From positions 64,001 to 128,000 of the IMG/VR virus record IMGVR_UViG_3300014204_000111: a stretch of 64,000 bases of DNA; one strand, given 5' to 3'. Source of the stretch: a virus. Its lineage: Duplodnaviria; Caudoviricetes. The translations under genes were made by a program, and so were the position numbers. Under the pieces are notes generated by a model. The model was not told where the DNA came from. It made no database searches and saw only the letters and a program-made list of their open reading frames with translations. Positions 15,523 to 62,636 of the stretch are shown here, in pieces (position 1 is the first letter of the stretch; every line of letters starts with the position of its first letter).

Positions 15523-15595
15523 AGTCTCTTAGTTTAGCAGCAGAAACATTGCCTTGTCACGGCAAAGATAGCGAGGGCAGCACTCGTAGGGACTG
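15523..15595 (+). tRNA. tRNA-Asp(GUC)
   Basis: TTGCC-TTGTCAC-GGCAA; atypical T loop GGCAGCA. Confidence 0.88.
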
Positions 15596-15649: not shown

Positions 15650-15929
15650 GCCCAGGTGGTGAAATTGGCAAACACAAGGGACTTACATAAAATTGAGCGT
15701 ATATAAAGGAATTTATATATGGATGTCGCCTAATTCGGTGAAACCTAAGTCAAAAGATATGGCAATACCGAGCCAAACTCTAATAAGAGAAGTGTGTAGA
15801 GACTATACAGCGACCATCCAGAACGGATGAAGATAGAGTCCAGACCCCAAACTTAACAGGTAGAGAAATCTATGGTGGTATGAAAATCCCTCGGCTTCGG
15901 TCTTACGGGTTCGATTCCCGTCCTGGGCA
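15650..15929 (+). tRNA. tRNA-Leu(UAA) interrupted by a group I intron
   Basis: Exon 1 15650-15684 ends GGGACTT; exon 2 15883-15929 starts AAAATCCC; GCCCAGG/CCTGGGC acceptor. Confidence 0.93.
15685..15882 (+). mobile_element. Group I intron (IC3, trnL-type), 198 nt, no ORF
   Basis: P AATTCGGTGAAAC, Q GGCAATACCGAGCC, R GTGTAGAGACTA, S AAGATAGAGTCC; terminal G; inserted after U34 as in cyanobacterial/plastid trnL. Confidence 0.92.
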
Positions 15930-16143
15930 TTTATTTTAAATTAGGAGATAATTATGGAGAAATCTTGTTGGTGGATAGAAGGTGGATTATGTTATTTAGA
16001 GCATAATCGTAGAAATACTACAGATGGACGTTCATGTGTTAAATGTAATGGTGTATGTAAGGGTTATATTTCTAAAAGAGAATTTCTTTCACAGTTTATT
16101 CCAAGTGATAAATTGATAATTATGAGCGAGGAAAGTAATATAA

Positions 16144-18293
16144 ATGAAAATTCAATTGATTGTTTATGAAATTTTTGCATGTAATAGTCGTAGAATATTT
16201 CCAAGATTTCCATCTATTCCTCTTGGTGACAAAGTAGATTGTATAAAATTTATGATGATTTCTCATAATAATGTGGTTCCTTTATCAAAAATATGGAAAG
16301 CAACAAAGAGAAAAGAAGGTACACAATAAATGGATGTTAAATTAATTGCTCTTATTATTACGGCTATGGCAGACCATTATTTAGGATATGAATTTGATAT
16401 ACGTAACTTTTACCTTAAATATCATAAATCTATGAATCTTTGCTCAGGTAATAATTTAACTCATATTTGGTCACAGCTTGAACATAGAAGTATAAATTAT
16501 AAGCGGAGTGTAGAATGAAATTTTTATTTCCCAGGTTTATTGCTGTTGAAATGACACTAGGAACGTGGAAAGAAATTTGCCATTTAAATTTCTTTGATAA
16601 AAAATGTATGGCTTTAAATTATGTTTCAGGAACAACATTTTTATCTATGACAAGAATGTTAGAAGAGCTAAAAAAGCTTCTATAACACTGGAGAATACAA
16701 AGAAATGTATAGTATATTATGGTATATAAAATCTTCTATCTATATTAAGATAAAACGAGAATCAGGAATATCTCCTTCTTCTTTATCTCTTTACTGGAGA
16801 GTGTTATGTTTACTGAAAGGTGTTAATGTTTCCATAAATCTATAGCATATAAAATATCAAGGATGGTTATCACTCTGAGAGCGAGACAAGCTGTTAACTT
16901 GTTATAGGATAGTTTGATTCTATCACCATCCGCCATTTTTTTATGCGCCCTTAAAGCGTAGATAGCGACGCGGGACTCCTGTAAAGTTCAGAGAATTGTG
17001 CAAGTCAATTTGGGGGCTTTTGAACTCTAAATAAGGTAATAAAATGATGTTTTTTATTAAATTAATCAGTCTTAAAATTAGAGATTACAGAACATTTGGT
17101 TTAGAATTTAATGATTATTATCCTTATTATTGTTTGCGTAAACCATTTTTTAATCATGCATTATCAGTTTATTTTGACATCTTTATTAGGTCGATAAAAT
17201 CATGACATTATTTTTGCATTTAATTAGCACTATTTTACATATGAAGAAATTCAATCCTTATCGTAAATTTAATTATAATATAAGAGAGTGGAGAGTATTA
17301 TATCCTAAGCTTATATTTAATAATAAATATAAGAGCAGATATCCTCTAAAATTAAGTGATGTTCTTAGATGTATGAAAAATGAGAAGAAAAGTGTGTCTA
17401 GAAATAGAGCGTTTAAATGAAAATACGAATAATAGCTTTTATGATTAATAGGTTGTTCTGGAAAAAATATTTTAATATAACTCCTGAAGAAAAATTTCTT
17501 TCTCAGACTCAGTGTGGGATGGTTAATCCATTATCAACATTATGGAGATATTTAAAAAAGTGAAGATACAATTAATAGCATTTAAAATTATGTTGTTACA
17601 TCATGTTAAATCAAATAGGGGATTTAGCTTAACATTCTTTGATTTAAAGAAGATTAACCAAGAGTTAGACCATCGTTCAATGGGAATGAGAACAATTAAG
17701 TCTTTGTCTCTTTATTGGGGAGAAATTAAGTGCAAGAACTTTTATTCTTATAGTGTGCAAATATGATTTTTAAACTAATTGCTACGGTTATTTTATTAAG
17801 AACTTATCATTCACAACATCTTTCTCTTAGAGAGCATTATAAGGCTTATACTATTTTTATGTCTACAGATTTAGAATTACCATTGTCTGAACTACTTAAT
17901 CGTTTAAAAAGATGTCTGAGATAAATCGTTATAAGGAATCAATTAAATGAGATTGAAATTAATTGCTGTGATAATGGGTTTAATGTATATGGATAGATTG
18001 AAAGTTTATCGTAATGACTTATATAATCTTAGTAAAAATCCGGATATAAGTTTTTCTAGTGGCTTAGTAAACGTTTGGAAAATAATAAAGGAAGAGAGAA
18101 AGAGTAAAAGATGAAATTTAGATTAATTATTTTAATAATATGTATAATGTCTACACACCAAGGTAATAATATACATAAAATATTTGATTTATACGATATA
18201 TATGACTTAAGTAAAAATTCAAATTTCACTTTTATTAATAGCTTATCAAATATTTGGGAAGAAGTTAAATTATCAGGTGTTTGGGAAATTTAA
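16144..18293 (+). CDS. Tandem array of 45-75 aa paralogous microproteins (N-terminal 'KLI' patch, C-terminal 'LS..W..LK')
   Basis: ORFs at 16144, 16330, 17202, 17417, 17560, 17947, 18111 with overlapping stop/start codons and shared end motifs. Confidence 0.65.
16861..16935 (+). tRNA. tRNA-Asn(GUU)
   Basis: GGATGGT/ACCATCC-GCCA; ACAAG-CTGTTAA-CTTGT; divergent D arm. Confidence 0.85.
16947..17018 (+). tRNA. tRNA-Thr(UGU) with C33
   Basis: GCCCTTA/TGGGGGC; GGACT-CCTGTAA-AGTTC. Confidence 0.8.
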
Positions 18294-18360: not shown

Positions 18361-18435
18361 GCGGGTATGATGTCAATGTCAGCATGGGGCGCTTCCAACG
18401 CCTTCGTCAGAGTTAGAGCCTCTGTATCCGCTCCA
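18361..18435 (+). tRNA. tRNA-Gly(UCC)
   Basis: GCGGGTA/TATCCGC-TCCA; loop CTTCCAA. Confidence 0.92.
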
Positions 18436-19744: not shown

Positions 19745-19831
19745 GGGAGAGCGTTGGAGTTAGAGAGCCAAGACAGACTGTAAATCTGTTCCCTTCGGGG
19801 TGAGTAGGTGCGAATCCTACCTCTCCCACCA
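19745..19831 (+). tRNA. tRNA-Tyr(GUA)
   Basis: ACAGA-CTGTAAA-TCTGT; variable arm CCCTTCGGGG; ACCA end. Confidence 0.93.
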
Positions 19832-20999: not shown

Positions 21000-21071
21000 G
21001 TCTCTTTAGTTTATATAGTAAAACAAGAATCTCCAAAATTTTAGAAGTCTGTGCAAGTCGGACAAGAGGCG
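21000..21071 (+). tRNA. tRNA-Trp(CCA)
   Basis: GTCTCTT/AAGAGGC-G; loop CTCCAAA. Confidence 0.85.
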
Positions 21072-23314: not shown

Positions 23315-23725
23315 CACTAACTAATTTTTTAAATTTGATTGTATATTCTCTCTGTAAGACAGAAAATATTATGACAAATAATAGCATTGGACTTGAGGAT
23401 AAAATTATTCGAATGAAAGTAATAAATAAGAAAATGTTGACCTCTTTATCTATAAGATTGAAAGAATTAAAATATGGCTATGACAAAATATTCAGGTAAT
23501 TGAGGTCATAATATGAAATTAACTAATTTTTTAAATTTAATTCTATATTCGTTATGTTTTAATGATAAGTATTATCAAAATTCCTTAACTAGCAAAATTA
23601 CGTCGATTAAATTTTTAGATAAAAAGATACTTTGGTCTACAGAACAATCATTAAAAATGAAAAAATTGGAAAAATTAAATTATCATTAAACTGTTTTGAA
23701 AACGCTCTACGGGGTATAATTATAC

Positions 23726-26630: not shown

Positions 26631-26705
26631 GGGAAGATAGCTCAATTAGTAGAGTGCTAGATTGAAACTTTGGTGACATTGGTGCAATTCCATTTCTTCC
26701 CACCA
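26631..26705 (+). tRNA. tRNA-Phe(GAA)
   Basis: GGGAAGA/TCTTCCC-ACCA; loop TTGAAAC. Confidence 0.88.
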
Positions 26706-27919: not shown

Positions 27920-27995
27920 CCGCAGAGGGAAGGCTCAGTTTAGCCTCGAAATTCTTATAAAATTTTATACTTTCGTGCAACTCGAAATCTGCGGA
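27920..27995 (+). tRNA. tRNA-Ile(UAU)
   Basis: CCGCAGA/TCTGCGG-A; AAATT-CTTATAA-AATTT; T arm TTTCG-TGCAACT-CGAAA. Confidence 0.78.
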
Positions 27996-30961: not shown

Positions 30962-31036
30962 GTCCCCGTGGTGTAAAGAATAGCATACGACTCTTCTAAA
31001 GTCTTGGATAAGGTTTGATTCCTTACGGGGATACCA
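30962..31036 (+). tRNA. tRNA-Arg(UCU)
   Basis: GTCCCCG/CGGGGAT-ACCA; loop CTTCTAA. Confidence 0.9.
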
Positions 31037-34406: not shown

Positions 34407-34523
34407 GGGCGAGGGTTTGGAATCACCAGCGGAAGAGCGGAACGGATTCGACTTCCGTATACTCCATCACGGGGTATAACCGGGTTCAGCACCGCCAAGT
34501 GGGTTCGATTCCCATCTTGTCCA
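34407..34523 (+). ncRNA. 117-nt RNA with two G3:U70 acceptor/T-arm modules (tmRNA tRNA-like-domain mimic)
   Basis: Outer GGGCGAG/CTTGTCC-A with T arm GTGGG-TTCGATT-CCCAT; inner T arm ACGGA-TTCGACT-TCCGT followed by ATACTCC-ATCAC-GGGGTAT; own promoter. Confidence 0.75.
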
Positions 34524-39196: not shown

Positions 39197-39270
39197 TGCG
39201 GGATAGAGAAGTAGTTACTCGGAAGGCTCATACCCTTCAAACGTGGGTGCAAATCCCACTCCCGCAACCA
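39197..39270 (+). tRNA. tRNA-fMet(CAU)-like
   Basis: TGCGGGA/TCCCGCA-ACCA; GAAGG-CTCATAC-CCTTC; initiator-like D stem. Confidence 0.85.
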
Positions 39271-48866: not shown

Positions 48867-50482
48867 AATATATATTTAATCTCTTTTATGTTTAAGAATC
48901 TAGGTAAAGGGGAATAATATATTATCAATAAAGAGTGAGGATGAAATGCATAAGTTTAAGGTTGAAGATTTAGTTGTGATTCAAGAGAATCCTTTCCATC
49001 GGGCTTTGATTGGTACTTATGGTATGGTTGAGCAAGTGTTTGGTGGGAATGATAATACTACACCTGTTTATTCTATTGTTACGGAGCGTGGAATTTACAC
49101 TTTTACAGAGCAAGAATTGAAGGGAGAATAATTCAATGATGAACAAGTATGAATTATTCGGTTATTTATCATTCTTAGGTTTTCATCCTAAGTATGAAAA
49201 ACCAGTAAAACGTCATAGTATGACCTTCCAGATTATTAGCTTTACCATTGGCGATAGAGATGTTTACTTTGAAGGTGATAATTATTGGTCATTGAATGAA
49301 CATAAGACTAATCCTGACCGTTCTCTTTACTTTGGTGGTGGAAGTAAACAAAAAGAAATTCAAAAGTCTATTAAACTTGTTGAATCTGGATTTACAGGTG
49401 TTGAACCACGGGTTATCTGGAAGGATGACGTTGTTATTATGCATAATCCATTCTATGATAATATAAAAAGTAAGGAATTTCATGGTCGTGGTTATTATGA
49501 GTTAGAATTACCTATTGGTCATAAACTAGCAGACAGGATTCCAGAGGGTCTACCATATAATTAGAATTTAACCTAAAACTTGTTTCACATATAGAGAGCG
49601 GGGTATAATAAGATATTCAAGAGTTAGGAGAATTAAATGGCTGTTCAAAGTATCTGGAAAGTATTAGGTGATGTGATGATTGCTAATATGGAAGCAGAAA
49701 AGCAAGCAGAAATTAAGGCAAGCGAAGCATTTACAACTGAAGAGCTTTTTGAGGAAGCTTCTAAGTTGTTACGTGAATGGACTAAATGTACGTTTGCTAA
49801 CATCTTCTTGCGTTATTCTCCTCATACTTATATTGAAACTATTAAGCGTAAAAAAGTTGAGGTTCCTGGTGCTGCTTGGCATGTCTCAGGAAGTTATAAA
49901 ACTTATATCTGTGGAATGTCTCACGAAATTGAAATGGAAGGAGCTAGGCTTGGTTATACGCCTAATCACGCTCTTTGGGTGTTCTTGGAAGGTCTTAAAA
50001 AGAGGATTTCATCAGAAGCTAAGAAAGAAAGTGTTTAATTTCTTCTCCGCAGGGTATAATACTGTATCAAAGCAAGGGAGTCAGAAATGACCAAGTTTTC
50101 AATTACCATTAATGAAGAGAACGATGAAGAGATTATTAAATTGGTTAAGACTTTTCTTTCGACTGTCTGTAATAGTCTGCCGTTGGTTGAGGTTGAGAAT
50201 CAAGCTAAGACTGCTTGGGACATTACCAAAGAGCAGGTTAAGCACTTTATCTATATTAATCATCAGCTATATACCACGAGAAACATTGCAAACGCATTTA
50301 ATATGTCGATAACAGATGCTAAAGCAATGCTAAATGCTTTGTGTGATGAAGGTAAAATCCAGAAGAATATCTTTGGAGATATGGACAAACTTACTACCTG
50401 GAGTTCACCAAGTTTTAATCATTAATCTGTTATCTTTGCTCTTCACCGGGTATAATATAGTATCTTTGAAAGAGAGGAACAA

Positions 50483-50807: not shown

Positions 50808-53755
50808 TGATTGCTAATATTGAAGTAAAGTCGTTAGTAAATATTCATCCAGATGATTTCACTGGATGTGAACATCAATGGATAGAGAATCCATATGATT
50901 ATGATTCTTGCCAAACTCAAGTTGTTTGTTCTTTGTGTCACTGTCCAGGTGAATTAGACGAAAAGACGGGAGAATTGGTTTATCCTACAACTTAAGAGGT
51001 AAAGAGATGTCTAAGTGTGTAATCTGTGATAAAGAGTTAAAGAAATCTATTGGAGCATATGTCAATGTTGAGTGTGATTTAATTCACTTTCAAGATGACA
51101 ATGCTTGGCCTTGCTGTCCTGATTGTATTGCAAGATATGAAGATAAAGAGCATTGGACAATTGAACAAGCGAGAGAGTGCGAACAAGAAAGGGAGAATAG
51201 TTAATGATAAATAGAGATAGGCTCAAACATCATAAGAGAATCAAGCGCAATAAGATGTTTTTAAGATATCATTCTTGTCCAGAAGGTAGATATTGTCCTT
51301 GGTGTCAAGAAACGAGACAGTATCAGATAAAGAGAGAAAGAGAAAGACTCAAAGACCAGGAGAAAGAGTTAATCGAAGTTTAATGATTAATTGGTTTGTT
51401 GCTCTTCATCCTGGGTATAATACAGTGTTCTGAAAGGGAGTGAGAAATGGTTAATCTTGATAAAAACGAAGTGAACAATCTTATTCTTGCGGTAGGCGTA
51501 GAAATCTTTGCGCAGCAAGCATTGCAAAGTATCAAGAACATTCGTGCTGCCGGTCTTGATACTCCTGATGGTATTGGTATTAAAACTAGCAAAACCTTTT
51601 ACGATTGGTTAATGTTTAATTATCTTCCTTTGGGAGTGAGGTCTTTTATTATCACTGAGGAATCAGTTAAGGGTTTTATCAATGCTTTAACCCATGACCT
51701 TGTAGATATTAATTTTGCTGAAAACCTAAAGGCCAAGCAAAGTTTTTGGGCAAAATATGAAGTAGATGATTAGACTTCTTGTTTATCGGGTATAATAAGG
51801 CATCTCAGAAAGGGAGAACGAAATGTTAAAGGGCGAAGTACATTTTGATAAAGATGGCAATGTTATTGGTTGGGGTGTGTGGACTAATGGTGGAATTGAA
51901 GGTGGCGATTGTGTTTATGAAGAGAATGCTGTTGGTATGTTCTATTCTCAAGCATTAGCAAGAGCACAGGCTAAGGCACTCGAAATGGAAGGCCAGCCAC
52001 TTCCTATCTATTCTAATGATTCGCAGCGTGTGGATGCCCTTGTAGAGCTTCTTAAGACCTATCTTAGCGATGATGGGATGGCGGAAGGTGAGGGCGGTGG
52101 ATGTTATACGACGAAGGGACAGCTTGAAGTTGAAGAGAAGATGAACGCAATCCTAAAAGGGAGATAAAATGTTTAACAAGCCAAACAATTTTGTACATCC
52201 TAATGGTTTTGGGAAGGTTAACAAACCACCCAAAAGGAAAGGCCAAAAGACCTTTGGCTATCGTTTCTGGTCTTTTGTGTATTTTTGCTCTTCTGAAGTT
52301 TCTCGTCGTGCTTCTCGTAGAATGATAAAAATGATAAGAGGAGAATAGAATGGCTTGGCTTATCTTCCTAATTCCTATCTTGTGTGTTGTAGCATCCTTT
52401 ATATGGCCTACCAAGTGTCCTAAGTGTGGCTATCATGGATTAAATTTAGCTTGGCAAGATAAGAAATTGTTTGGTAAATATCGTAGATATTATAACTGTC
52501 CTTGTGGACATAAATGGAGTGTGGGAAGATGACAGGTCAAGAGGCGGGAGTATTAGAGAAGAAATTAAAAGCGTTATATCCTAATGCAGTTATTAGTGCA
52601 TATATAACTGATAGAATCCATTGTTCCGAAAAGATTATTCATAATTGGTCTATTTCAATTGAGTTTCCTTTCTCGACTGTTCAAGATGTTGATAATTTCT
52701 TAACTCTTTATCCTGTAAAGGTGTAAAATGTTAGTATGGTTAATTGACGCGGTACAAGAAAATGCTTGTGGCGATACAAAATCATTTATGGTACATGCTT
52801 CATCTACAAGAGAGAAAGCGGAAGCTTGGGTTAAAATGCAGCAAGATAAACATAAAGATTATATGCCAAAGTATGAATATATCATTAGTGGCTATACTCT
52901 TGATGTAGAGGATTTAATCCAAGTTTAACTAGAGACTTGTTTCTTTGCTCTTCACTATGGGTATAATTAAGAGTAAGTCAAGGGAGTAAGAAATGGAAAC
53001 GATTTTGTTAGTTAGTTATAAGCCAGATAAGACCAGGCGTATTAGTGCTACATTCTTTTATTGTAAGCAAAAGGATTGGGACGACGAACCTTTGCACCAA
53101 GTTACTGATAAGGATTATAAAGCAGTAATCCTTTGGGCGAAAGTTATTGAGGAACAGAAAGGAAAGGACGTTCATATAGATATTCTTCAACATCTGCTTG
53201 ATAGTATTAAGAATGACCAAAAGCATAGTTATGAGTCTGAAGATTGGTTTATCCAGTTTGTGCCTTGTATCTGTTCTTAAAGGATAAAGAGATGAAAGTA
53301 AGCGTATTGATTAAACACCTTCGTAAGTATACAGTAAAATATAAATTAGCCAAGCAATCTTATCTTTACGCAATGAAGAGAGATTGGAGTTTTAAAACTA
53401 AGTGGCGTTATTTTAAATGGGCTATTGAACCATTATTTCGATAGGAGCACGAAATGAAAGCTAGTACATTAATTACACAACTTTGTGAGTGTCTTATCAG
53501 TAATACTATAATTGGACAAGATAAAGAGACAATCATTCGTGCTAGAGCTGCTCTAATAAATGCAATCAAAGCGGCTAATTCTGATTGTGATGTTTGCACA
53601 GAAGATATAAACTTTGATAGTGTAGAATTTAAAGCAGCTATTCTTTTGGTGTTTGATGATTGCCCTAAAAATAATTACATTGATATTTTACCTAAGACTG
53701 ATTAGTTGCTCTTTATCTGGGGTATAATAAGGCATCTGAGAGGGAGAACAACAAA

Positions 53756-55468: not shown

Positions 55469-56039
55469 GGGAAAAGCTAGGTCTTTTATATATTTAAAAA
55501 TCAATCTCAAACAATCTACATATCCCCACAACTTAACCAATATCTAACAAAGTGTTTTACAAGACTACAAAACCTCATAAAAGACCCACATTTAAAGATA
55601 AAGAGCTTAAATTCTAAGTAACCTGTTTGAAATCTTGTCCTTCGGGTATAATATAGCAGCGGGGAAGGGAGCGAGAGGAAAGCTGCTCTATGACCTCTCT
55701 TTCCTGATACCAATAGGAGTGCAATATATGTTGATGAAGTTGTCAAGTTGTTGTTGGGCAGAAGTCTTTGATGAAGATAAAGAGCCTGAATGTTCAAGTT
55801 GTGGCAAAAAGTGTCAAATTATTGAACATGATGTGCCTTTAGCTAAAGATGAAGATTCTTAATCAGGATTTAACCCAATTTTTATTGACATAAACACCAG
55901 CATATGATAATGAGACTGCCTCCCAGAAAGACACGCTTGCCCCAGGTGAGTTAAAAAGGTTTAATTAGTATTTAACCACACAACTGTTTTAAACTCTCTT
56001 CACCGGGTATAATTAAGCATCAGAACGAAGGAGCAAGAA

Positions 56040-56567
56040 ATGAGTAACACAGTGGTCTTGAAATGGGATAGTGATTATAACTCATCAATGGACATTAACA
56101 GCCACTTTCTCGACTTGTGGAATCGTGAAGAGAAGAAATTCGAGACTAAATGGTATGGCGATACCTACAACTTCGATTATAAGTGGATTGATGAAGCTGG
56201 TGGCTGGGCTTCTGAAGAGGATAAGGAAGAGGCTTTCCAGGCTGTCATTAAGCGTGACTTGGAAGGTTGGATGCGTGACCAGCGTATCAAAGATGAAGAG
56301 AAAGAAATGGGCGATGATTGCACTGTGGTTCGCGGAAAGAAAGTTCCGCAGGGAACCAAGGGACGCATCTTCTGGATGAAGGAAGTGCCTAAGTATCATT
56401 CCTATGGGCGTGACTTTGAATGGCGCGCAGGCATTAAAGACCAGTATGGTGATGTTCACTGGCTGCCCCTGTGCTACTTGATGAAGGACACAGTGGAATA
56501 CACTCCGCAAGAGGATGTCATTGCAGAGCATAAGGCTTACTACATGAGGAAGTGGAGCCACAAGTAA
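56040..56567 (+). CDS. Hypothetical early protein (GC-richer), SH3-like C-terminus
   Basis: VVRGKKVPQGTKGRIFW; promoter at 56005, terminator at 56586. Confidence 0.75.
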   Translation: MSNTVVLKWDSDYNSSMDINSHFLDLWNREEKKFETKWYGDTYNFDYKWIDEAGGWASEEDKEEAFQAVIKRDLEGWMRDQRIKDEEKEMGDDCTVVRGKKVPQGTKGRIFWMKEVPKYHSYGRDFEWRAGIKDQYGDVHWLPLCYLMKDTVEYTPQEDVIAEHKAYYMRKWSHK

Positions 56568-56585
56568 GATACGATGGAGAATATG

Positions 56586-56612
56586 GCCTGGGGAAACCCA
56601 GGCTCTTTTTTT
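56586..56612 (+). terminator. Rho-independent terminator
   Basis: GCCTGGG-GAAA-CCCAGGC plus T tract; near-identical hairpin at 59466. Confidence 0.88.
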
Positions 56613-56734
56613 TAACTAAAATTTGGCTTGACACCAAGGGCTTCATATGATAATGAGCTGAGCATAGGACATAAGAGTGTTTAACCAGATTTTCACTCAG
56701 AAAGTGTTTGAAAGCCTCTTCACCGGGTATAATA

Positions 56735-56816
56735 AGATACCCTAGAGACTTGGGTGCGAATCCCAACTGCCCGTCGCAGGGTACATCGTCTAAGAGTAGG
56801 ATACTAGGCTGTATTT
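56735..56816 (+). ncRNA. Circularly permuted tRNA-like RNA
   Basis: CCTAG/CTAGG, AGAC, TTGGG-TGCGAAT-CCCAA, TGCCC/GGGTA closed acceptor, TC-GTCT..GGAT D arm. Confidence 0.85.
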
Positions 56817-56832
56817 TTGTTAGGAGTTTACA

Positions 56833-57129
56833 ATGAACATTCAAGACTTGATTAATGCCCCTAGGATTGTCGTTCGTAACAGCAGAGGCCAGCTTGTTGG
56901 TGGGATGCCATCTTACAAGGTTCACGAACCTAACGCGAAGATTAAGAGCGTTCGTCAGTTCTTTGGCTATCTGATGCATTCATCCTGGGGAAAGAACATT
57001 CAGGATGCCACTATGGAAGCCTACAATGCCCAAGGTGAGCTTTTGGCACGTGCTTCTGTGTCCACCACAGGGACGCATCCTAACGGTCATCCTAAGCGTT
57101 CTGTGAAGGTCTCATTCACGAAAGTTTAA
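56833..57129 (+). CDS. Hypothetical early protein
   Basis: AGGAG RBS; follows the permuted tRNA-like RNA. Confidence 0.75.
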   Translation: MNIQDLINAPRIVVRNSRGQLVGGMPSYKVHEPNAKIKSVRQFFGYLMHSSWGKNIQDATMEAYNAQGELLARASVSTTGTHPNGHPKRSVKVSFTKV

Positions 57130-57228
57130 CCAAGAAACCTGTTAGAACCTTGAAAGTTGGGGTATAATTAAGAGTGAGGGAAAGAAAGCTTCCCAAGTTT
57201 GAAAGGCTGCTTTAGCGCCAAAGATTGA

Positions 57229-57301
57229 AAGCGGAAGGTGCGGGTGTAAGGCCCGTGTGTCAGTAACTCTGGCAGTAGACTAAATAATAGGTCAGCCGCT
57301 T
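57229..57301 (+). ncRNA. Circularly permuted tRNA-like RNA
   Basis: AAGCGG/CCGCTT, AAGGT, GCGGG-TGTAAGG-CCCGT, TGTCAG/CTGGCA, TA-GACT..GGTC. Confidence 0.8.
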
Positions 57302-57315
57302 GTTTGAAAGCAAAG

Positions 57316-57401
57316 ACAATCAATAGTTTAGGGGTTAGAACGCCAGACAAGCATGGTCGCACCTGTAGATGGTAGGGCAGCTTCGGACGCTGCTTGATTG
57401 T
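57316..57401 (+). ncRNA. tRNA mimic in normal order, without an anticodon loop
   Basis: ACAATCAA/TTGATTGT, TA-GTTT-AGGGGTTA-GAAC, irregular CCA..TGG arm, GCAGC-TTCGGAC-GCTGC. Confidence 0.75.
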
Positions 57402-57497
57402 TGGATGCTAAAGAAGGATGGTTGGCACTTACCAAAAGTCCGCCGCATTGAAAGGCTGCTAGAAGCGCCGTTTATGAGACTGTCTAATTAACAGTTA

Positions 57498-57582
57498 GCA
57501 AGGAAACGAGAGTGCAATCCTCTCTGCTGATTTAGCAAGTTGCAAATTGCCTTAAGCATCGTCTAGTAGAAGGACGCCTTGT
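57498..57582 (+). ncRNA. Circularly permuted tRNA-like RNA
   Basis: CAAGG/CCTTG, AAAC, GAGAG-TGCAATC-CTCTC, TGCT..AGCA, TC-GTCT-AGTAGAA-GGAC. Confidence 0.85.
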
Positions 57583-58363
57583 GTTTGAAATCTGGTGGAT
57601 TGGGTATAATAAGAGTGAGGCAAGGTTCAGGTGAGTAGCTTGGTAAAACATTGGGAATCAACCATAGATAACCTATCTTAAGTTCTTTTAAAATAGTTGG
57701 TATGTTTTGTTCTCATGATGAAGAGCAAAGAGATACGGATATACAGGAGAAGTTCGACTCTTTTCCTCTTGTTCTTCATCTTTTAACTTGATAACTTATG
57801 AGTCTTATAGCCCTTATAATTGGTGAGTCCTGTTATGTATTAGGGAATTAGAAGTAAGACTCTTTTAACTTGATAATTTCATATAAGAGTCTCGCTAGAC
57901 TTAGACCCGGTGGGTTTAAGGGAAATAATTAGAGATTCTTCAGATTACGGGAAGAGAGGATTGGACTTGTATGGAGCAGCTTAACAGTACCCTAATTACA
58001 GGTTCCCTCTCTTTTCTCTGGTTAAATTGTTTGCAAACCCGTACTAACTGGGATAAGTTAGGATGATAACAACATTACAGTTAAATCTTAAAGTCTCATT
58101 GTTAAAGAGCAAGGAGAAATGATATGCGAACCTTCACCTAATTGGTTCTGAAAGACAAAGATTTTAATACATATAAATATAAATTGAATTGTTCGAGTTA
58201 CCTATGTGAAATTCAGGTGGCCTCTTTCTTAGAACTTGTTGCAGTGGTCTTATCCTAATCTGCTGTTCTAAGGGAGAGGTTTTTGCTATTATTTAACCTA
58301 AAACATGTTTGTTTGCTCTTCATCCGGGTATAATAAGGCATCTAAGAAACAGGGAGCTTGAAA

Positions 58364-58816
58364 ATGACATTCGTGGGAAGCAAGTATAACGAAACTAAGA
58401 ATCTTTCAACCACCGAGATTGCCAAGCTCATTCGTGCTGACATCAAGGCTGCTAAGGCTGATGGTTCAATCCCCAAGTTTTGCAAAGTTTCAGTGAATAC
58501 TGAATACTTCGCCAATGGTTCAAGCATTGACGTTCGTTTGAAGACCTGGGAAGGTGAAATGGTTAACATTGAGTTAGCACGTGAAATCTATCCCAATCGT
58601 CCATGCAACATGAAAGATATCCTTGTGATGAAGCTGGCAAAGACTCTTAGCACTCTCCAGGCTATCCACGACAGCTACAACCAGGACAGCAGCGAATCAA
58701 TGGTGGATTACTTCTGTGTTAACTACTATGGTTATGCTGATTTGGATTCGGAACTGAGCGACAAGATTCATGAGACATTGAAAGCTAACAACATCAAAGG
58801 ATATTATGACCGTTAG
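58364..58816 (+). CDS. Polyvalent-protein-associated (LPD29-like) domain protein, tentative
   Basis: EIAKLIRADIK...SV...Y..GSSIDV...YN.D.S..MVDYF. Confidence 0.6.
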   Translation: MTFVGSKYNETKNLSTTEIAKLIRADIKAAKADGSIPKFCKVSVNTEYFANGSSIDVRLKTWEGEMVNIELAREIYPNRPCNMKDILVMKLAKTLSTLQAIHDSYNQDSSESMVDYFCVNYYGYADLDSELSDKIHETLKANNIKGYYDR

Positions 58817-59002
58817 TGTTTGAAACCTGAGCTAACGGGTATAATAAAGCATCAAAGGAGAGAGATGGCTAAATTCTGTTGTGAGTGTGGAGAAAAGGTT
58901 AATGATTATGAGTGGGATGAAGTATTAGGAGCTTATTTCGGTTATTGCTCCGAGTGTGACGAAGACCATCTTGTACATTGAAATATCTCAGTAAGTCTAC
59001 AT

Positions 59003-59109
59003 CCTTGCGTAGTTGAAAGAGAATAACGGTCTATAATCTCTGACGGGTAATAGATGCATTAAAACCGTGTATATTATAGAACATTGTGGGTGCAAGTCCT
59101 ACCGTAAGG
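59003..59109 (+). ncRNA. tRNA mimic with an elongated anticodon arm and no CCA
   Basis: CCTTGCG/CGTAAGG, TA-GTT..AAC, TCTATAAT/ATTATAGA, GTGGG-TGCAAGT-CCTAC; enclosed by CTCAG/CTGAG. Confidence 0.78.
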
Positions 59110-59850
59110 TCTTAATTTCTAACTGAGAAGTGTTTAAAACTTCGTTACTAGGGTATAATACAATCGAGAGAGAAACTCTCTTTGCTCTTAATCTTGGAGA
59201 AAAAGATGTACGCCACTAAGAACTATAAGACTAAGAAAGAGTTTAAAGCTGCTGTTGCTGAGAAAGATGTCGAAGTCTATCAGCCTAACCAGATGTTTGA
59301 AGTCAAGGCTGGCCCAAAGGTTATCTGTGGCCCTCACGCTCCTGCAATGCATACGTGGTACGCTAATGCTAGGGTTATCGAGAGAGATGGCAGTTTCTAT
59401 GTTGAGAAGGGTAGCAAGGTTGTTTAGGAAGTGACCCACTTGGGTATAATAAGATGAGTGAACCAGCCTGGGAGCAACCCAGGCACTTTTGCATTGAAAT
59501 CATCTTTAAATAAAGAGATAATTCTTCATTATCATATGATTGGCGCTTTGTATATAGATAAGTTGAGATTTTAATTAGATTTAATTATATTCATTAATTC
59601 AATTTTTAAATATTTAACCTATATAAAGGAACCTTCTGGCTGGTAGAGAGTTAAATTTAGAGTATTATATGATATATTATATATGATAAAAGTTTATAGG
59701 GAAATTGGTTCCATAGAAAAAAGACCTAGTGCTCTAGTTCACAAAATTCAAACTATAAAAATTTCTTTTAAAAATAAATCTTCCAAAAAGAAAGTTCACA
59801 AAATTCAAATATAAAAAAGGGACTCCTAAAGAAAAAGGTGGTACAGAAAA

Positions 59851-62636
59851 ATGAATTATATAAGAAATAAGTTTTTAAATAAAATTAGATATAATATTAT
59901 TTGTAAAGCTCTGAAAGTAGATTCCTTAGAAAATATGTTGGTTGAAATAAAAAGGTACATATTTCCTCATAGATTATTGGTCTTAGATAGTATATATAAA
60001 ATATTTGTTGAAAAAGGATTAAGAGGAACTACCATAAAGCAAGATTGGAAATATATGGTTGATATGGTGAGATTAGGGACTCCTAAATAAAAAGGTGGTT
60101 AGAAAATATGTATAACTATATAAGTGATTTATGGAAAGGTAAAAAGAATGGATGTTTGAGAGCCTATTGGAATAAATTAAAATATCACTTGAACAAGAAT
60201 GTTTAACACAATGAAAACAATTAGATTCCATATATATAAATTATTTTATTTGCAAATAGTTCCTTGTAGTAATGTGAGAAAATATAGATATATAGATAGT
60301 CCATATCTTTTTAAACAAAAAATTGGATTAGCTAATGTTTTTAGGATGATAAAAAAAGGAGCTTTAAAATGTCTTTAAATCAATTTCTAAGTTTTATTCG
60401 TATATATTTTGCTAGAAATAATACTTGTTTTGCTCCTAGTTTTATTCCTAATAATACCTTTAAGAATGGTTTTGAAAAAATTTGGCTGGCCTTCCTTTTT
60501 ATATTATGAATCTTAGAGTAACATATAAAAAATGGCTTTATTATAGAGGTAATGTGCAGAACGAAATATATAATAAAGAGACCTGGAATCTTTTTCTTTC
60601 AAAAAATGGTGAAAAGAGGTTTCCATGATATTTATATTAAAAATTATCAGACATCGCTTATATGTACGATATTATAATTATTTAGCAGAAACATTGAGTG
60701 CTCGTGAATTTTTGTCTGATTCTCGTGATTGGACTAATAAAGGAGTTATAAATGTATGGGAACAAATAAGACGACGTTTTATGTAAAGTTTACTGGACTT
60801 ATTAGAAATAGAATCTATTTATGTTTTTATAAGAAAAAGTGTGGATTTATACTTATTGAGGAAAACAAATTCTATCCTTTGAGTACCTGTTGGTCTAAAG
60901 TTATTAAGAAAGTTTCACACAATGATTAAAATGACCCAAATTATTAGATATCAAATATATTTAGTTTATGATAAAAATGTTAAAAAATCCATTGCATTCA
61001 AAAAAGTACCTTATCGTGATATGAATAGTATGGGGTATGATTGGAATAGATTAGGAATAGCAAATATATTTGATAGTTTAAAAACCAATGTACCATGTGA
61101 AAAATATACTAGACTTATTATACATGGATATTAATTTAAAAATTATTGCTTTTACCATCTATAATAAAAGATGGAAAAGTCATTACTATAAATTATACCC
61201 AGATAGTAATATACAACCTTATTCGGAAAAGATTTCTTCTATAAGAAAAAAGGCTGTTGCTAGATGGCATTTAAGTTTGACTCTATGTTGGGAGGAATTG
61301 ACATGCTCTTCATCTTAAAAGTTATTAGGCATCGTTTATATTATAGAGTATGGAGTCCTTACTGGTCAATTACACATAGTGATAATTATTCTACTTCTAT
61401 AAGTTGGAACTGCTGGGTAAATAATGGACTATCACGCTTATTAGGAAAATTAAGATGAAAATATTCAAAATTATTCATTATAGATTCTATCATCTATTAT
61501 ATAGTAGGGGTATTATCAATATAAGAATTAATATAAAAAATTATTCATCTAATAATAGTTTTATTTGGTTCAATATAGGTATATCACGTATTTTACAGCA
61601 GCTAAAAACAGGAAAATTTTACTAATATCATGTCATTAAATCTATTTTTAAATCTGATTCACTTATATATCTCAAGTCATAACGGACACCAAGATACAAA
61701 AGACCATAGCTCTTTATCTTATAAAATAATGGTAATGGCTCAATTAAAAAACAAACATAATCTTATTACTTTCTCTATGGTTGGAACATATAAGATGTCA
61801 TACTTATGGTGGATAGAAAACAGGAAAAGAGATGAAATTTCTAAGAGAAATTAGGAATAAAATTTATTATGCTATTTCACCGGAGCTTGGTTATTTTAAA
61901 ATGTATGTGTCTCTTAAAAATGCCTTTATAGCGTGTAAATGTATATATTTGGGTGAAGAAGGTACTTTGTTGGAAAAATTTTATGACCTATTAAATAAAG
62001 AGAACAATGATTCTTTACGGGAGTGAAATGCAATATCTTCATAAAATTAACACTGAGTTACATAATCTTTATTGTCTTTTATTACATCTTCGCGCGCGTT
62101 TTTACTTTCCTGACAAAAATTTGTCAGAAAAATGGAGTTATATTGTTAAACATGTACAAAAAATTAATGAAGAGTTATAACAAAAATTGTTGTATTAATA
62201 TTTTATTAAGGGTAGATGAGAAAATGAGAAATAACAAATTATGAGAACAAAAAGAAACATAATTGATGTGATATATTGGAATATTGTAAATTTTGTATTT
62301 TCTTATAATTTAGATGGTTATTCAGATTTTCGATGGGGAATGTATCTAAAGAATCGGTGGAATTTTATAAAAAAATATTATAAACATAGGTCTTAAAAGA
62401 TGAATTTTACAACTCGTATTAAAAAAATTATTTATAAATTAAGATATAATACTTTTATGGCCCCCCATGCGGTAAAAGAAATATTATCAGATTGGCATAT
62501 TTTAATACAAAGAGCTAGAAGAGTTAAAGTAATCAAAGCATATGAACGAGCTTCTAAACAAAGATTTATTTGCAGACTTTTTTTTATTCATGTTATAAAG
62601 GTGATGAGAAGACATGCTTTTCTTAAGAGTAATTAA
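59851..62636 (+). CDS. Second tandem array of basic/aromatic microproteins
   Basis: ORFs at 59851, 60625, 60922, 61124, 61303, 61455, 61630, 61832, 62400 with overlapping ends and shared 'LKIIR.R.Y' / 'G...W..L' patches. Confidence 0.6.

Follow-up and report, generated by a model that had tools for sequence, protein, structure and literature searches.

A tRNA body without an anticodon loop and two weaker tRNA-like elements in a promoter-driven RNA locus of a Caudoviricetes phage

Three short elements with features of transfer RNA (tRNA) lie on the plus strand of a stretch poor in open reading frames (ORFs) in the uncultured Caudoviricetes jumbo phage recorded as IMGVR_UViG_3300014204_000111. 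We refer to them as elements A (57316-57401), B (57717-57780) and C (59003-59110). The genome is a single contig of 220,861 bp with direct terminal repeats and 31.7% GC; the window analysed here comprises its bases 64001-128000, a stretch of 64,000 nucleotides (nt) whose numbering is used throughout for this phage. The surrounding region is rich in promoters and holds approximately 27 tRNA genes. Thirty-eight plus-strand copies of a promoter core, GGGTATAAT, occur in the window against 0.7 expected, and share the upstream motif GTTTGAAA-N13. By their sequence, the two together appear to constitute a phage promoter, which is of bacterial rather than archaeal type, and all three elements are predicted to fall within early transcripts driven by it. 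The phage itself appears to belong to an orphan lineage, since the best-matching phage records share only ~29-32% identity with its DnaE-type polymerase (tblastn) and its capsid protein gave no tblastn match in INPHARED. A blastn comparison of the genome with itself showed that A, B and C all lack close paralogues in it, and none of them is therefore a recent copy.

Element C is a genuine, old tRNA-derived RNA that retains the whole 'top half' and core of a tRNA. A 7-bp acceptor stem is followed by U8A9, a D arm (GUUG-AAAGAGAA-UAAC) and, after the anticodon-arm site, a T arm (GUGGG-UGCAAGU-CCUAC), all of them intact. An extension of ~41 nt stands in place of the anticodon loop: a perfect 8-bp stem, UCUAUAAU/AUUAUAGA, surrounds ~25 further nt, and beyond this helix come first an internal loop and then a 4-bp stem, ACGG/CCGU, with a loop of 18 nt. 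As the anticodon loop is replaced by this paired extension, C cannot decode. Its minimum-energy fold is a cloverleaf, and the sequence permits the core pairs U8-A14, A15-U48, A9-A23-U12, G26-A44, G19-C56, U54-A58 and G53-C61. The elbow is of the phage's own A18/G55 type, the discriminator is U, and CCA is not encoded.

Two measures carry the case for C. Against the Rfam tRNA family RF00005 it scores 26.6 bits (E = 0.015 in a search of 4227 families over 3.5 kb), which is under the gathering threshold of 29 bits, and the alignment runs end to end (positions 1-71) with a 30-nt local gap at the anticodon loop. The second measure is a strict descriptor that requires a 7-bp acceptor in which one mismatch is tolerated, U8, a D arm of 3-4 bp whose loop contains RG, any insert of 10-75 nt, and, abutting the acceptor without a gap, a 5-bp T stem closed by G-C with a T[TG]C[AG]ANN loop. 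Applied to both strands of the 221-kb genome, it matches only ten real tRNAs and C, with a chance expectation of 0.13-0.15 per genome-equivalent in Markov simulations. Among the three elements, the normal-order architecture of acceptor, U8, D arm, G53-C61 and U54..A58 is found in C only. C lacks a 7-nt anticodon loop and is not called by ARAGORN at default settings. Seventeen of the phage's tRNAs were used to build a covariance model (R1), hereafter the phage-tRNA model, which was run without filters. It scores C low, at 9.5 bits, because the long insertion is penalised; the sole non-standard pair that it marks is one anticodon-stem pair, and our case does not draw on this model. Within C (59012-59037), the D arm and anticodon stem together read GTTGAAA-N13-TATAAT, which is promoter-like; compared with GTTTGAAA, 16 nt including GGG, and TATAAT, its spacer is 3 nt too short, and it is probably not a promoter.

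The T arms of this genome can be placed on a statistical footing. We defined a strict T arm as a 5-bp stem closed by G-C with a T[TG]C[AG]ANN loop. Genome-wide, 25 such arms occur on the plus strand and none on the minus strand, against 0.6 expected per strand. Eighteen of the 25 belong to tRNAs (fourteen by ARAGORN or Rfam, four read as tRNAs by eye), and the remaining seven belong to tRNA-like elements that include B and C. The T-loop motif proper, with its U54-A58 reverse-Hoogsteen pair and G53-C61, is present in B (UUCGACU) and C (UGCAAGU) and absent from A. A descriptor of the D arm alone is unspecific, with 16 matches on the plus strand and seven on the minus strand versus 12 expected.

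A further regularity links the two halves of the elbow. In the phage's tRNAs, a T loop with U55 is matched by GG in the D loop, and one with G55 by AG and never by GG (14/2/0/9, Fisher p = 2.7e-5); only Asn and Arg-TCT depart from this, carrying U56 with GA, a second covariation (19/56). Nine non-decoding tRNA-like elements follow this elbow rule without exception (4/0/0/5, p = 0.008), and both A (GG/U55) and C (AG/G55) fall within it. At the level of sequence, the rule is consistent with a D-loop/T-loop contact, and it is the best available substitute for covariation across genomes. The 18/55 and 19/56 covariation within a single genome can be seen, for example, in the tRNAs at 21000-21071, 26631-26702, 39197-39267 and 30962-31033.

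The phage-tRNA model also recovers tRNAs missed by ARAGORN and by the Rfam thresholds, among them Thr-UGU, a class II Tyr-GUA and Ile-UAU; the recovered genes lie at 16947-17018, 19745-19828, 27920-27995, 18361-18432 and 15523-15595 plus 15863-15930, one of them being split by a group I intron at 15675-15862. Besides its tRNAs, the phage has seven YrlA-like permuted modules, with the arm order V-T-AS-D, and an RNA with a double tRNA-like domain at 34407-34523.

In element B, a 12-bp outer stem leads through a 16-nt 5' strand that contains GG into an 8-bp arm, whose loop, UUCGACU, is a canonical T loop; UUUU follows the element. It folds at -20.6 kcal/mol (z = -3.0). The loop is closed by G-C and gives a strict T-arm match at 57748. 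Given the strand bias and excess of such arms described above, the T arm of B is almost certainly not a product of chance. Apart from this arm, B contains nothing tRNA-like and has no anticodon arm. It is unreported against RF00005 at E <= 10, and the phage-tRNA model aligns it (12.8 bits) only with broken acceptor and D pairs. B may be a terminator or processing hairpin, and to regard it as a 'minimal elbow mimic' is conjecture. Its 3' strand (CTTGTTCTTCATC, 57766-57780) resembles a TTGCTCTTCAYC spacer that one subclass of GGGTATAAT promoters contains (58310-58325, 50433-50445 and 52942-52954 were compared), and the reverse complement of a TTGCTCTTCAYC-type spacer is the source of the 13-nt matches of its 5' strand.

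Element A can be drawn as a cloverleaf. Its 8-bp acceptor, ACAAUCAA/UUGAUUGU, is followed by U8A9 and by a D arm, GUUU-AGGGGUUA-GAAC, that is much like the D arms of the phage's tRNAs. A non-canonical T-like hairpin (GCAGC-UUCGGAC-GCUGC, 5 bp and 7 nt) abuts the acceptor. The site of the anticodon arm is taken up by ~30 irregular nt, namely a 3-bp base with 24 nt, and there is no 7-nt anticodon loop. On the phage-tRNA model A scores 14.6 bits (E = 0.23 in the window and 0.007 in a 2-kb region), aligned end to end with no broken pairs, while no minus-strand match exceeds 10.9 bits window-wide or, within the 2-kb region, 4.2 bits. The four highest scores in that region are all on the plus strand: A, B, the permuted module X2 (10.3 bits) and C. 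ARAGORN at default settings makes no call for A, and RF00005 does not report it at E <= 10. A structure-only descriptor that A matches has ~4.8 chance matches per strand, and the minimum free energy (MFE) structure of A is a three-way junction rather than a cloverleaf. The odds that A is tRNA-derived are about even; as a candidate it is of the same kind as C but weaker, and its elbow is doubtful. MFE z-scores of the isolated elements are weak (A -1.1, C -0.8), as real tRNAs typically show too, and were not used as evidence in either direction. Global identity of the halves of A and C to the phage's tRNAs was also tried and set aside as uninformative, shuffled sequences scoring alike.

A preliminary description of this locus had presented A, B and C as independent solutions converging on the tRNA elbow. 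The sequence features it listed are all present, and tRNA-like bodies without an anticodon loop are secure in the case of C, but A is marginal and B offers only its T arm. The idea that the elbow is the selected feature finds internal support, for the set of elements overall and notably for C, in the elbow rule among non-decoding elements (p = 0.008) and in the plus-strand excess of T arms, although the elbow of A itself is doubtful. To speak of three independent solutions is an overstatement, with C alone a secure tRNA body, A bearing a non-canonical T loop and B perhaps of terminator type: three different things have been lumped together. The acceptor stems were further said to be buried in longer outer helices. 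The flanks of A can form 4 bp (p = 0.87) and those of C 7 bp, parted by 10/12-nt loops (p = 0.08); both are at chance level, and the flanks of real phage tRNAs show complementarity of 4-7 bp as well. The elements do lack an encoded CCA, but this does not distinguish them, as seven of the 20 ARAGORN tRNAs of the phage lack it also, and a missing CCA is no proof of sealed ends.

The three elements occupy separate predicted transcription units. T1, a non-coding unit driven by the promoter core at 57160..57168 (+), contains a leader hairpin, the permuted module X1 (57229-57301), A, the leader hairpin once more and the module X2 (57498-57582), so that A lies exactly between two units of leader hairpin plus YrlA-like permuted module. 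The leader hairpin, TTGAAAGGCUGC-loop-GCGCC, is duplicated at 57199-57211 and 57448-57460 (hairpins at ~57209-57223 and 57449-57464), each copy preceding one permuted module, and its GC stem with a bulged U is conserved while the loops differ. T2, driven by the core at 57602..57610 (+), contains hairpins and B, followed directly by a 16-nt linker with a CTTTTAACTTGATAA core (57779..57794, +). An identical plus-strand copy, found as a blastn self-match, follows the next T2 hairpin at 57861-57876. Standing after two successive hairpins of T2, the linker may be a processing or binding site and not just a U tract. Promoter P58326 drives a 150-amino-acid ORF. The core at 58837..58845 (+) heads the unit that holds C and, upstream of it, a CxxC...CxxC micro-ORF of 38 amino acids (58865..58981, +) with weak zinc-ribbon Pfam matches, predicted to be co-transcribed with C. 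C thus lies between this micro-ORF and the next promoter in the 3' direction, P59151, and the real tRNAs of the phage are likewise interleaved with micro-ORFs. The whole locus is part of a 3.9-kb island of 38-54% GC (55600-59450), made up of RNAs and ORFs, that abuts a stretch of 18-27% GC at 59500-60500 and may be a module of different origin.

Relatives of the locus were sought in several collections. A blastn search of INPHARED with 56800-60000 gave no match, and scans of IMG/VR with the flanking proteins P0003 and P0005, the T-arm/acceptor string of C, the promoter pattern and the capsid protein returned nothing related. One metagenome scan for the promoter plus RNA start gave eight single matches, all unrelated. 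Protein searches found only the phage itself and relatives at <=44% identity on short contigs. The one other contig with P0005 is 100% identical over 6.2 kb, and contigs with distant P0003 homologues carry dense small-gene regions with no RNA gap. With no relative in the collections searched, any account of function rests on anatomy.

The non-decoding elements are probably handles for tRNA-processing or tRNA-binding proteins. The best explanation, to which we assign a probability of roughly 40%, is that they serve as tRNA-type punctuation read by the maturation enzymes of the host. Starting from the observed structures, statistics, strand, positions and agreement with the elbow rule, the steps that we envisage are transcription, cleavage, a stable product and a binding partner. 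Host enzymes that read the stack of acceptor and T arm together with the elbow, such as RNase P and RNase Z, would recognise the bodies of A, B and C; the CCA-adding enzyme, TruB or TrmA may be further readers. Recognition would lead to cutting of the polycistronic early transcripts at the ends of the elements, and the product released would be a stable, non-decoding, tRNA-shaped RNA still able to occupy tRNA-binding proteins. The positions of the elements (A between repeated units, C before the next promoter, B at the end of the first T2 module, before the linker) suggest punctuation. No CCA-adding enzyme or RtcB was detected among the phage genes. More than a third of the ARAGORN tRNAs (7/20) encode no CCA, so tRNA-shaped transcripts of this phage must already depend on the host for 3' processing and for the addition of CCA. 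A precedent for processing is provided by the tRNA-like domains of YrlA, which RNase P cleaves and which acquire CCA and the modifications of tRNA (PMC4201824).

Several observations weigh against tRNA-type punctuation. Punctuation alone leaves the long, well-paired extension of C unexplained. The loop of A, UUCGGAC, has G58 and a non-canonical C53-G61 closing pair, and hairpins with a G58-type T loop occur at chance frequency in the genome (4+5 seen versus six expected per strand). In the folding ensemble of A the D arm has a probability of 0.005, against ~0.7 for an alternative long arm, and T1 in its entirety folds no better than shuffled sequences (z = -0.65). RNase P measures a stacked helix of 12 bp, from which the 20 bp of B depart. 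The inner arm of B was flagged as terminator-like in a promoter/terminator scan, and its outer stem is followed by UUUUAACUU, but the base of the stem is AU-rich and the tract amounts to four U only. Finally, homologues of A, B and C are absent from the collections searched, and covariation across genomes is accordingly lacking.

Punctuation has a serious rival in the view that the released RNAs act as decoys, even if we consider this view improbable as the principal explanation. Here anticodon-less bodies would occupy putative host proteins that grip the elbow or acceptor, for instance tRNA-targeting defence nucleases, toxins or modification enzymes, while offering no cleavable anticodon loop; processing would then be a mere route of maturation. 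Defences that cleave tRNA are known to be neutralised by tRNAs of phages (PMC10264068, PMC11464382, PMC11555353), and T4 RNA ligase is reported to counter an anticodon nuclease (PMC2610378). The phage's heavy investment in tRNA-shaped RNA, comprising its ~27 tRNAs, the seven permuted modules and the double-domain RNA, is in keeping with such a role, as are the adherence of non-decoding elements to the elbow rule and the presence of two genes of the RNA-ligase family (PF09414; 12046-12561 and 24155-24649, both +) inside the tRNA region. Conversely, the elbow of A is doubtful, and a body without a loop may not compete for anticodon nucleases. These enzymes generally need the anticodon loop for recognition.

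It is also possible, if again unlikely, that A and C are relics, tRNA genes disabled by insertion or rearrangement in the anticodon arm and now drifting, with B a terminator or processing hairpin whose loop reads UUCGACU by accident. A visibly decayed tRNA-like sequence does exist in this phage at 23830-23899 (+), behind the promoter at 23712; it scores 15.5 bits on the phage-tRNA model and has kept GGUUCGAAUCC. Unlike A and C, however, it has lost many of the pairs in its acceptor, D, anticodon and T stems. Non-essential DNA is tolerated by jumbo phages, A has its non-canonical T-loop positions and irregular middle, and the UUUU and terminator-like flag of B would fit a hairpin of that kind. 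Set against this, the stems and core tertiary positions of C are all intact and its insertion itself forms a perfect 8-bp helix. Moreover, none of the phage's tRNAs can be recognised as a parent of A or C, so these are not fresh pseudogenes, and a strict T arm would arise by chance in the 1.2-kb gap with an expectation of only ~0.003. For C, drift is thus less likely, and the same applies to the idea of an intron.

That idea, in which A and C are functional tRNAs whose extra anticodon-arm nucleotides are an intervening sequence removed by a nuclease and a phage RNA ligase, could appeal to the two ligase-family proteins that the phage encodes, to the group I intron in another tRNA region and to the calls of Lys-CUU for C and Thr-UGU for A by intron-allowing ARAGORN at lowered thresholds, but we regard it as very improbable, as those calls appear only at thresholds of 70-80% and beside obviously false ones, inserts of ~24 and ~41 nt fall far below the length of a group I intron, the promoters are of bacterial and not archaeal type, C has two nucleotides rather than one between its D and anticodon stems, its 5-bp anticodon stem runs on for three more pairs (AAU/AUU), and no excision from C yields a 7-nt loop with U33 on an in-register stem, without which an intron reading fails.

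The nearest described phage RNAs are rnaC (species 1, 139 nt) and rnaD (species 2, 119 nt) of T4, non-decoding small stable RNAs at the edge of the tRNA cluster of a large phage, whose function is still unexplained (PMC3014915; PMC9697503). The 3' end of rnaC folds into an acceptor-like helix that carries a canonical T arm, CCGGG-UUCGAAU-CCCGG; in phage T4T (L030:1445-1583, minus strand) this RNA matches the tRNA clan with only 17.5 bits (MFE z = -4.6). In this combination of a T arm on an acceptor-like helix with a weak tRNA-clan score, it resembles C and B. There is no sequence similarity, however; rnaC has no recognisable D arm, whereas C has a complete D arm and core, and A, B and C, unlike rnaC and rnaD, sit in promoter-driven arrays with YrlA-like modules.

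The Y RNAs of YrlA type, which are bacterial and phage-borne, conserve T and D arms and tertiary pairs and have no anticodon (Chen et al. 2014, PMC4201824). While the seven permuted modules of this phage share the YrlA arm order, A and C have normal tRNA order with an open acceptor and no closed AS hairpin. The YrlA family model RF02553, run over the genome, gave a best score of 13 bits away from A, B and C, which is no match. An identity as Ro60-associated Y RNA was considered and rejected, the genome having neither a TROVE or DUF2828 gene nor an RF02553 match. Compared with a canonical tRNA, C aligns end to end with RF00005 and A with the phage-tRNA model, yet both lack the 7-nt anticodon loop. 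The tRNA-like domain of transfer-messenger RNA (tmRNA) and the phage RNA at 34407-34523 combine, as C does, a tRNA top half with a long helix in place of the anticodon arm. C differs in its full D stem, in U3-A70 instead of the G3-U70 alanine signal, and in that CCA is not encoded; the Rfam tmRNA models found no match in the region of A, B and C.

A bolder and rather improbable proposal is that C joins the seven permuted modules and the double-domain RNA, and possibly A and B as well, in one deliberate phage toolkit. Such a toolkit, if real, would hold non-decoding tRNA bodies of differing topology that share a working elbow and no other conserved feature, and would capture or divert the host proteins that read tRNA shape, including defence nucleases, toxins and enzymes of maturation and modification. 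This would amount to an RNA-based strategy of counter-defence or takeover without a described precedent in phages.

The unexplained T4 rnaC and rnaD have stood for fifty years, and C now provides a second, clearer example with a phage-specific covarying elbow, as well as a concrete construct for work on RNase P and RNase Z, CCA addition, modification and pull-down of binding proteins. Current accounts of phage tRNA genes invoke either the supply of codons or escape from tRNA-cleaving defences. A tRNA body without an anticodon fits neither account, and points instead to the shape of the tRNA itself, and so to processing, stability or the capture of proteins.

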